Below, in pieces: positions 31,554-32,881 of a DNA stretch of 50,400 nt; position 1 is the first letter of the stretch; each line of letters opens with the position of its first letter. The DNA comes from Escherichia coli (GTDB taxonomy: Bacteria > Pseudomonadota > Gammaproteobacteria > Enterobacterales > Enterobacteriaceae). Location of the stretch: NCBI RefSeq assembly GCF_003334335.1, contig NZ_QOWQ01000034.1. One strand, written 5' to 3'. The notes below the pieces were generated by a model. It worked only from the letters and a program-made list of their open reading frames with translations. It made no database searches and had not been told where the DNA came from. Both the position numbers and the translations under genes were made by a program.

Positions 31554-31598
31554 GATACTGCTCCTTGGGATTAATCGTTTTCGTTTCGATACCCTGTA

Positions 31599-31624
31599 AA
31601 AACGACACCTCGGGAGCAAACTTA
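31599..31624 (-). promoter_or_regulatory. Candidate sigma28 (LafS)-type promoter of lafA
   Basis: Minus strand TAAGTTT-N11-GTCGTTTT about 45 nt upstream of lafA ATG; partial match to TAAAGTTT-N11-GCCGATAA. Confidence 0.3.
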
Positions 31625-31987
31625 AAACCGCCGTTAAAAAAATTTCACTGCGGTTTATCTGATGCCACTTTTAGCTAAAAAAAGCAGAGTTTAAATTCAG
31701 ATAAAAAGATTATTAGCAATATCTGCCACATGGCCAGGTATCAAAATATGTCTTTATCAAACGCTTGATATAGTTAAGATTACCATCAATTAACGCGTTT
31801 TCTTCTCAATGTACTGATGCCAAAATTTACATTGCGTTGCAAATAGTACACATTTGGCTATTGTACCTGTCCTGTCATTTCGTTACATTTCCACGCCATA
31901 TAGTGATTAAGAATAATCCTATTACCATAAAATATTAATTATCACGCAGAAAAATCATCTTCTCAGGGACGTATAAGACTGTGCTTT

Positions 31988-32881
31988 ATGCAAAGCACTA
32001 TCAGGAAACATTTATCCCTTGCTAAGGTAAACTCAACTATGAGTATTATTATCAACAACTGGCGGATGGACCCGTCGCTTAATGCCTTAATACATTGCGA
32101 AACGGGTGAAACACGTCGTCTCGGCGAATACCATTTTATTTTGCTGGAAACATTAGCAAAAAATGCCGATGTGGTTTTATCGCGATCTTATTTATGTGCC
32201 GAAGTATGGAAGAACCGCATTGTCGGCGGTAACAGCCTGCCGACGGCGATACATGCATTACGCGTTGCTATCGACGATGATGGCAAACAACAGAACATTA
32301 TTAAAACCATCCCGAAAAAAGGTTACCTGTGCAATAAAGAGTATGTGTCTTTGCCGGAGTCATCGCCTGCGGAAGCGCTGATTATTACCAACCAGGTACA
32401 GGAAACTGTGCCAGGAGAGATATCTTCGACAACCCTGCCTGTGCCTGTTAGAAAAAAACATAAAGGACTGATGGGGTTAGCGTTGACCGCGGCTGTTATA
32501 TTTATTGGCTCGACCGTGGGGTATTCACACTTGAAAAGTACACCTGACGCCCCGCAACTGGTAAAAGAGTCAATTAACAGCCCAAGAATAAAAATATTTC
32601 ACCTTAGTTCTGGAAAAGAAAATAATTCCGCACCGTTACTGTCACAAACCCTCGCACCAGGAAAAGACAAACTCGATAATTTATTGTCAGCGCATAATAT
32701 GACAATGACAACCTATTATAAATATGTTCGTAACCGACTGGAGAGTGATATTGTTCTGCGCAACCAGTGCAATGGTAGCTGGCAATTAACCTTTAATGTG
32801 GATGAGTGGCAGAATAGCGATATTAATAGCGCGATGTATCAGAATTTAGAGAAGTTGTTAAATACTGTGCAGAAGTGCTGA
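31988..32881 (+). CDS. lafZ: Membrane-anchored ToxR/CadC-like transcriptional regulator (OmpR/PhoB-type winged helix, one TM helix, periplasmic C-terminal domain)
   Basis: 297-aa ORF; winged-helix-like segment; TM segment GLMGLALTAAVIFIGSTVGY; start may be ATG 32039; gene name from memory and uncertain. Confidence 0.7.
   Translation: MQSTIRKHLSLAKVNSTMSIIINNWRMDPSLNALIHCETGETRRLGEYHFILLETLAKNADVVLSRSYLCAEVWKNRIVGGNSLPTAIHALRVAIDDDGKQQNIIKTIPKKGYLCNKEYVSLPESSPAEALIITNQVQETVPGEISSTTLPVPVRKKHKGLMGLALTAAVIFIGSTVGYSHLKSTPDAPQLVKESINSPRIKIFHLSSGKENNSAPLLSQTLAPGKDKLDNLLSAHNMTMTTYYKYVRNRLESDIVLRNQCNGSWQLTFNVDEWQNSDINSAMYQNLEKLLNTVQKC

Follow-up and report, generated by a model that had tools for sequence, protein, structure and literature searches.

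The stretch of Escherichia coli DNA considered here, 50,400 nucleotides of contig NZ_QOWQ01000034.1 in assembly GCF_003334335.1 (hereafter the window), contains lafZ, whose product is regarded with moderate confidence as a transmembrane transcription regulator of the ToxR/VtrA kind, specific to the lateral-flagellar (Flag-2) locus and switching lateral-flagellar genes. The Flag-2 locus spans approximately 24 kb to 50 kb of the window. lafZ is a named gene of E. coli Flag-2 and not a discovery; the gene and its general nature are known already, and this is not a new kind of system. The additions made here are a predicted sensor fold of VtrA/ToxR type, a probable partner gene that has been mistaken for cargo and that Escherichia has lost, and a modular structure of the spacer between lafA and lafZ.

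A preliminary description of the window had proposed a ToxR/CadC-like membrane regulator encoded divergently from the flagellin gene lafA, with an OmpR-type winged helix, a single membrane helix and a periplasmic sensor domain. Each of these parts is recovered, as follows.

32039 to 32881, plus strand: lafZ coding sequence, 280 amino acids plus stop; the start is kept in all orthologues and is that of RefSeq and its Prokaryotic Genome Annotation Pipeline (PGAP).
32111 to 32329, plus strand: winged helix-turn-helix (HTH) of OmpR/PhoB type, predicted to be cytoplasmic; Pfam Trans_reg_C, with ToxR and CadC matches.
32345 to 32464, plus strand: unconserved linker from the DNA-binding domain to the membrane helix; predicted local distance difference test (pLDDT) values of 29-44.
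32465 to 32527, plus strand: single predicted transmembrane helix GLMGLALTAAVIFIGSTVGYS, residues 160-180 of the 297-residue reading frame, with RKKHK on its cytoplasmic side.
32528 to 32878, plus strand: predicted periplasmic domain of approximately 117 residues, beta2-alpha-beta3-alpha (VtrA/ToxR type) by AlphaFold2 and Foldseek.

The open reading frame (ORF) as first delimited, 31988 to 32881 on the plus strand, encodes 297 amino acids and is flanked by two minus-strand genes. The ATG at 32039 (M18 of this frame) is invariant across orthologues, and the 17-residue extension ahead of it is missing or unalignable outside Escherichia. Because this start is conserved, is the one annotated by RefSeq/PGAP, and has a conserved AGGTA 11-15 nt upstream, LafZ is most likely a protein of 280 amino acids preceded by a spacer of 485 bp (31554-32038). 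Initiation at 31988 is less likely for Escherichia.

Trans_reg_C, at residues 42-114 of the 297-residue frame (E=4e-13), is the sole Pfam domain of the protein. By sequence, the closest solved relative is the DNA-binding domain of ToxR (7nmb/8b4b; E=5.5e-9, falling to 4.8e-11 when a family profile is used) and the second closest is that of CadC (5ju7). Foldseek searches of the PDB with the winged helix likewise returned ToxR (8b4d_C, target TM-score 0.73), with CadC also matched. Homology searches led to no unrelated family, and the only PHROGs match, phrog_731, falls on the winged helix. A winged helix of OmpR/PhoB type without a receiver domain places LafZ among the ToxR-like regulators and outside the two-component OmpR/PhoB proteins, whose response-regulator models match with their C-terminal DNA-binding part only and far below cutoffs. 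The sole hydrophobic segment, with a Kyte-Doolittle maximum of 1.85 over 19 residues, is modelled by AlphaFold2 as a helix at 146-163 (280-residue numbering). A positive cluster lies N-terminal of it, as in the predicted topology of one membrane helix with the N terminus inside and the C-terminal domain in the periplasm.

Structure prediction of the periplasmic domain, which had been suggested as a check, yielded a VtrA/ToxR-type fold. The AlphaFold2 model, built on 26 orthologues, is poor in the linker, moderate in the winged helix and confident over residues 170-280, where pLDDT is 80-94. The predicted elements in this part, strands at 173-176 and 184-190, a helix at 201-218, strands at 221-230, 233-242 and 247-255, and a helix at 262-274, make up the beta2-alpha-beta3-alpha set that is common to the solved periplasmic domains of VtrA and ToxR (Kinch et al., PMC9214523). 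In Foldseek searches of the PDB the domain matched VtrA at a moderate score (5kev_A/5kew_A; E=9e-3, probability 0.99, target TM-score 0.52-0.54), with ribosome hibernation factors of the same topology also among the matches. Cysteines C244 and C280, the latter being the last residue, are invariant in the 26 orthologues; a cysteine near the C terminus is a trait of VtrA/ToxR-type regulators (PMC9214523). At the sequence level the domain has no relative in the PDB, no Pfam match and no PADLOC family. When the membrane helix and periplasmic domain were used together as a query against 1.84 billion cluster representatives, only 20 proteins matched; the full-length ones among them are approximately 300 amino acids long with the match reaching the last residue, and the named ones come from Enterobacter and Pseudescherichia.

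Homologues of LafZ carry the source name 'CadC family transcriptional regulator', and the best NCBIfam match is the CadC equivalog. Together with the second place of the CadC DNA-binding domain among solved relatives, this could make LafZ a pH/lysine sensor of CadC type, an assignment that we consider very improbable. The database name overstates the relationship because the CadC model, NF007540, reaches 33.2 bits where the cutoff is 400, and only over the winged helix. Neither a whole-protein equivalog match nor a CadC-type periplasmic sensor was found; the periplasmic part, which has no match in Pfam, is a 117-residue domain with a VtrA-like predicted fold instead of the large CadC sensor, and no cadBA-like genes lie nearby.

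The identity of the gene is given by its two neighbours and by the order of the genes beyond them.

30639 to 31553, minus strand: lafA, lateral flagellin, the divergent neighbour; full-length match to NCBIfam NF033376, 667.8 bits against a cutoff of 440.
32940 to 33917, minus strand: lafW, Flag-2-specific putative hook-associated protein, convergent with lafZ and its neighbour in every locus examined (PMC6993521).

The lafW product has 325 amino acids and no family match, and flgL- and flgK-type genes come next. The order lafA(-)/lafZ(+)/lafW(-)/lfgL/lfgK equals the published lafWZAB... order (PMC6993521) and is the same in 20 orthologous loci, which puts the frame at the Flag-2 cluster 3 position between lafW and lafA. 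E. coli chromosomes match the region at 99.9% identity; the frame lies there between lafA and a lafW-equivalent annotated as hypothetical protein, then flgL. To one side the annotated neighbours are lafA, fliD, fliS, fliK, a FliA-type sigma factor and motA; to the other they are flgL, flgK and flgI. The region was found in 1278 of 5426 complete E. coli genomes, almost always as a single chromosomal copy; 1266 of the 5426 (approximately 23%) have lafZ covered to 80% of its length or more. The frame is assigned to lafZ because of this synteny and the 95-99.9% identity of the window to the approximately 1270 lafZ-carrying E. coli chromosomes.

The label 'putative transmembrane regulator' for lafZ in the Flag-2 locus of E. 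coli 042 reportedly dates from Ren et al. in 2005. LafZ bears the same label in cluster 3 of Flag-2, lafWZABCDEFSTU (De Maayer et al. 2020, PMC6993521; PMC7526173). The gene is kept in most Enterobacterales Flag-2 loci, is absent from Flag-1 (primary) loci and serves as a Flag-2 marker (PMC6993521), and the E. coli W genome paper uses identical gene names (PMC3032704). LafZ of E. coli 042 is the same gene as that of the window, at the same lafW-lafA position and of the same predicted nature; strain 042 differs in having a two-gene toxin-antitoxin insert between lafW and lafZ (PMC3032704), which the window lacks. Farther along the locus, an uninterrupted ORF of 143 amino acids, matched by no search, stands at window 42501-42932, where gene order predicts lfgC. 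In strain 042 lfgC is reported to be frameshifted; given the 143-residue ORF at this position, the window strain's Flag-2 locus may be structurally complete.

In other genera lafZ is accompanied by a second gene. Its 3' end is overlapped by an ORF of 154-159 amino acids with a signal peptide in 11 distinct loci of Citrobacter species, Phytobacter and Enterobacter sp. kpr-6, and by the same ORF in Enterobacter kobei, Pseudescherichia vulneris and two metagenomic contigs (L024-L027). This makes 15 loci from four named genera plus two metagenomic contigs, and most loci of those genera.

L002:4929-5408, with equivalents in L013-L022 and L024-L027: partner ORF, encoding a secreted beta-rich protein of approximately 157 amino acids (size range 140-160); no family match, annotated as hypothetical.

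The partner proteins align at 21-26% identity between genera, with two invariant cysteines common to all. The signal peptide looks cleavable (AxA), and no clear membrane anchor is seen. The best Foldseek matches are VtrC chains, at a weak level by which a lipocalin-like eight-stranded barrel is not established. In Citrobacter the overlap is 23 nt and takes in the codon of the LafZ C-terminal cysteine; VtrA/VtrC-like cassettes have the same overlapping arrangement, cysteine codon included (Kinch et al., PMC9214523). The position between lafZ and lafW has been described as the cargo hotspot 'VR2', found in 81% of Flag-2 loci and averaging 0.6 kb and one hypothetical protein (PMC6993521). This description fits the partner gene, and a ToxS/VtrC-type partner has probably been filed as cargo. 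Because lafZ overlaps, and is translationally coupled to, the gene of a secreted partner in most other genera, it is probable that the system was ancestrally a 'co-component' receptor of two proteins, like VtrA/VtrC, and that the Escherichia/Pseudocitrobacter lineage lost the partner.

In the window no adjacent overlapping partner gene is present, whereas the Citrobacter, Phytobacter, Enterobacter and Pseudescherichia loci have one. Its place is taken by a repeat.

32885 to 32935, no strand assigned: repetitive extragenic palindromic (REP) element in the 58-bp lafZ-lafW gap, where other genera carry the partner gene; recognised from sequence, with weak naRNA4/REP Rfam matches.

The gap is approximately 60 bp in Escherichia. 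Of the three Pseudocitrobacter loci, two have a gap of this size, and in the third, L006 (P. faecalis), lafZ and lafW are separated by two genes that form a Gp49/HTH (HigB/HigA-like) toxin-antitoxin pair (L006:4901-5551), the kind of insert reported there for E. coli 042. An Escherichia-like locus labelled as a Citrobacter metagenome-assembled genome, L007, has a gap of 306 bp with no ORF of at least 60 amino acids. The Citrobacter partner gene gave no DNA match in the 5426 complete E. coli genomes, in a search that a very divergent copy would escape. A stretch beginning ATGAGTGCCAAT just after the lafZ stop was considered as a remnant of the partner start and rejected, the true orthologous position (AATACT in E. 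coli, AATGAA in Citrobacter) being without an ATG.

No Escherichia or Pseudocitrobacter locus has the partner at the orthologous position, and DNA similarity does not detect it in complete E. coli genomes. This could mean that E. coli lafZ is a stranded remnant, its product unstable or signal-blind without an obligatory partner and Flag-2 silent regardless. VtrA/VtrC has been described as an obligate heterodimer (PMC9214523), ToxS is reported to guard ToxR from degradation (PMC7265457), and strains 042 and W are reported to have a non-functional Flag-2 (PMC3032704). Decay would, however, bring relaxed selection and frequent disruption. In the partner-less lineage the ratio of nonsynonymous to synonymous substitution rates (dN/dS) is 0.08-0.16 in the periplasmic domain, compared with 0.00-0.06 in the winged helix and 0.4-1.25 in the linker and membrane helix; both cysteines are kept and the module upstream of lafZ (see below) is conserved. 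An evenly spaced sample of the 1272 carrying E. coli genomes gave 29 full-length copies, each annotated as an intact coding sequence. Because of these ratios and the intact copies, the E. coli sensor domain is, by sequence measures, maintained by purifying selection and not decaying, and the remnant is an unlikely account of lafZ.

A maintained sensor is what would be expected of a working regulator of the ToxR/VtrA kind, and the distribution of conservation along LafZ fits such a protein. Identity to the E. coli protein is 85-98% across genera in the winged helix (one outlier at 70%), 0-20% outside Escherichia in the linker and membrane helix, and 27-97% in the periplasmic domain, a pattern in keeping with the fast-evolving sensor half and conserved winged helix typical of the VtrA/ToxR superfamily (PMC9214523). 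Going further, it is tentatively proposed, as a serious possibility short of an even chance, that LafZ is the DNA-binding half of a flagella-dedicated receptor of VtrA/VtrC type, with the VR2 protein as its ligand-binding partner, lost in Escherichia/Pseudocitrobacter, and with the sensor still under selection. If true, signalling in these two genera would be partner-independent, or the partner would be supplied in trans (e.g. by a YqeJ or FidL cassette), and enteric bacteria would have the expression of their lateral flagella linked to a periplasmic cue of lipid- or bile-like nature.

Base composition and synteny bear on another account, namely that lafZ, together with its partner, is a horizontally inserted cassette that controls genes outside the lateral-flagellar set, or represses or cross-regulates the primary flagella. 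The lafZ coding sequence has a guanine-plus-cytosine (GC) content of 43%, compared with 54-60% in its neighbours, and it borders the VR2 hotspot (PMC6993521). When E. coli is set against Pseudocitrobacter (window 26000-38500 with L012, L006 and L004), identity is 99.3% for LafA, 93% for LafW and only 64-66% for LafZ, and synonymous divergence in lafZ is saturated; such mosaic divergence suggests recombination or separate histories around lafZ. In L024-L027, around position 3500, lafZ is the outermost of the flagellar genes. Upstream of it come unrelated genes (alcohol dehydrogenase, TonB-dependent receptor, ABC transporter), and its only conserved neighbours are lafW-lfgL-lfgK and the small partner gene. 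Insertion nevertheless appears doubtful. lafZ keeps lafW-lfgL-lfgK on one side in 24 of the 24 distinct orthologous loci fetched, it occurs in most Enterobacterales Flag-2 loci and in no Flag-1 locus (PMC6993521), its periplasmic domain family is found only in such proteins, and fast divergence of a sensor beside a conserved winged helix is the rule in its superfamily (PMC9214523).

The DNA between lafA and lafZ, in which sites for the proposed Flag-2-specific regulator may lie, comprises the following parts.

31554 to 32038, no strand assigned: AT-rich lafA-lafZ intergenic region, 485 bp, 35% GC; a composite of modules.
31561 to 31566, minus strand: lafA ribosome-binding site AAGGAG, inside the conserved lafA-side stretch.
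31599 to 31625, minus strand: sigma-28-like element TTAAGTTT-N11-GTCGTTTT; the block AAAACGAC is invariant in 12 genera/species and occurs once in the window.
31704 to 31724, no strand assigned: middle block AAAAGATTATTAGCAATATCT, nearly invariant in the alignment, confined to loci with adjacent lafA and lafZ and absent upstream of lafZ in L024-L027.
31826 to 31892, plus strand: lafZ-proximal module, containing TTACATT (31827-31833), TTGCAA (31837-31842), TATTGT (31859-31864), TTTCGTTACATTTC (31879-31892) and a second TTACATT (31883-31889).

The spacer had been presented as a 434-bp AT-rich region typical of control regions bound by nucleoid proteins. Its AT-richness is evident, as 31554-31987 has 35.0% GC compared with a window mean of 53.7% (standard deviation 5.5, in 434-bp windows), only 0.3% of 434-bp windows are equally low, and the minimum for the whole window (33%) falls inside it; the bounds give way to those of the 485-bp spacer that follows from the conserved start. 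AT-richness is conserved, with 34-38% GC over spacers of 436-597 bp in the 20 orthologous loci where lafA and lafZ are adjacent. Two further stretches below 40% GC occur outside the flagellar locus, at window 6351-7575 and 15411-16065. As to nucleoid proteins, the base composition is suitable, but the spacer shows no enrichment of the H-NS high-affinity motif TCGATAAATT when as many as 2 mismatches are allowed, and no direct sign of H-NS binding was found there.

Most of the spacer is unalignable between genera, and several blocks are conserved, among them the stretch from the lafA ribosome-binding site to approximately 31625. Compared with the E. coli FliA consensus, the sigma-28-like element agrees at 7 of 8 positions in the -35 and only 4 of 8 in the -10. 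The segment 31599-31625 may be the lafA promoter, dependent on LafS; a search of the other flagellar DNA in the window for canonical FliA promoters, from which a LafS consensus could be derived, found none. In the lafZ-proximal module, the two TTACATT copies keep a spacing of exactly 56 bp, which Escherichia, Pseudocitrobacter and three Citrobacter loci have in common. The pair TTGCAA-N16-TATTGT could be a sigma-70 promoter, and the module as a whole (31826-31892) is a candidate promoter/operator of lafZ. Scans for sigma-70 promoters and terminators gave weak 9-of-12 promoter matches only and no terminator, and a repeat search of the spacer gave short two-copy families only.

In the four loci with unrelated genes upstream of lafZ, only degenerate parts of the lafZ-side module are present: L025 and L027 have TTACATT-type boxes with one mismatch, and three of these loci have a TTCGNTACATT-like stretch. 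Because parts of the module persist and the middle block is absent in these loci, the spacer is composite, one part belonging to lafA and another travelling with lafZ. The repeat unit reported for TcpP is TGTAA (PMC4829181), and its complement lies within TTACATT; this likeness is a lead only, because the spacing differs from that of TcpP and the heptamer is not over-represented in the window. The 13-mer TTACCATAAAATA, at window 31922-31934 and also upstream of lafK (lfiM-lafK spacer, L023:13082-13467), was considered as a LafZ site and set aside, its sharing being about as probable as not by chance and not conserved beyond Escherichia. Near it, TAATAGGAT/ATCCTATTA are likewise found upstream of both lafZ and lafK, in AT-rich DNA.

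Rfam gave no match in the lafA-lafZ spacer, and REP-derived matches elsewhere only. REP elements and bacterial interspersed mosaic elements (BIMEs) occur in several Flag-2 spacers (window 30520-30650, 32885-32935 and 36336-36554). The REP at 30552-30594 on the minus strand reaches 44.6 bits compared with an Rfam gathering threshold of 37.6 for the REP-derived small RNA family ES036/CssrF, and REP/BIME copy number near 36.4 kb differs between Escherichia species.

The manner in which LafZ might work is drawn from ToxR, TcpP, VtrA, PsaE and CadC, and from these analogues we infer its membrane location and topology, the disulfide, the sensing of an envelope cue, binding to AT-rich Flag-2 sites and laf activation. 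LafZ would stay in the inner membrane, where its periplasmic domain, probably locked by a disulfide, would report an envelope or extracellular cue, and the cue would alter the oligomeric state or stability of the protein. The winged helix would then bind AT-rich Flag-2 DNA, candidate sites being the TTACATT module 150-215 bp 5' of the lafZ start, the block upstream of lafA, or the lafK region outside the window. Binding would turn lateral-flagellar genes on, probably via recruitment of RNA polymerase and/or displacement of H-NS-type silencers. This mode of action is proposed because ToxR prefers low-GC DNA and antagonises or displaces H-NS (PMC4829181). That LafZ is an environmental switch for lateral flagella, as the preliminary description had it, is plausible by analogy; an input of this kind to a flagellar system, which the description called unusual, has a precedent, YqeI of the same class being listed as affecting flagellum synthesis (PMC10269533).

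Several points weigh against this reading of LafZ as a switch of lateral-flagellar genes. Literature searches found no functional study of lafZ, and a review table of characterised membrane-bound regulators does not include it (PMC10269533). Flag-2 itself is reported to be non-functional in some E. coli strains, 042 and W as noted above (PMC3032704). The winged helix is modelled at low confidence (AlphaFold2 pLDDT 35-72). TTACATT is not enriched in the window (5 copies found compared with 5.0 expected), and its weight comes from conservation only. Finally, lafZ is not always beside lafA, and lafA need not be a target of LafZ because L024-L027 (Enterobacter kobei, Pseudescherichia vulneris and the two metagenomic contigs) have lafZ without an adjacent lafA.

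Flag-2 is present in approximately a quarter of E. coli and in many other enteric bacteria, and lafZ may bear on when and why it is expressed. The gene is one of only three specific to Flag-2 and the sole one predicted to sense the cell exterior, which makes it the natural point of entry to the inducing condition. Placement with ToxR and VtrA, together with the 'cargo' protein as a probable partner, points to the hypothesis of a sensor that depends on a disulfide and on a partner and responds, perhaps, to lipids or bile. A natural comparison is available between lineages that have the partner and those that lack it.

Among known systems, two regulators are compared mainly by contrast. CadC of E. 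coli is likewise membrane-bound, with an OmpR-type winged helix and a gene beside its presumed targets, but it has a much larger and different periplasmic sensor and works with LysP. In Vibrio parahaemolyticus the master regulator of lateral flagella is LafK, a sigma-54 activator. It is the other regulator specific to lateral-flagellar loci, and the E. coli locus considered here has a lafK gene too, beyond the bounds of the window. Unlike LafZ, LafK is a cytoplasmic AAA+ enhancer-binding protein, unrelated to it, and no tie between the two is known.

The VtrA/VtrC bile-acid receptor of Vibrio parahaemolyticus and ToxR, with ToxS, of Vibrio cholerae stand closer. VtrA is the best structural match of the predicted LafZ periplasmic domain; other genera have the downstream overlapping ORF for a secreted beta-rich protein, with the overlap at the C-terminal cysteine codon, and the sensor half of LafZ evolves fast beside a conserved winged helix. 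The window differs in lacking the partner gene, and LafZ is not among the co-component systems listed by Kinch et al. in 2022, where flagella are never mentioned (PMC9214523). ToxR has the closest solved winged helix, with 35% identity over 103 aligned columns, and resembles LafZ in domain order, in similar length, in the beta2-alpha-beta3-alpha periplasmic fold (predicted for LafZ) and in a cysteine pair of which the second is C-terminal. The periplasmic sequences are unrelated at the sequence level, and no ToxS-like gene follows lafZ in E. coli. ToxR binds sites of the form TNAAA-N5-TNAAA. The targets of LafZ would be flagellar, whereas those of ToxR are porin or virulence genes.

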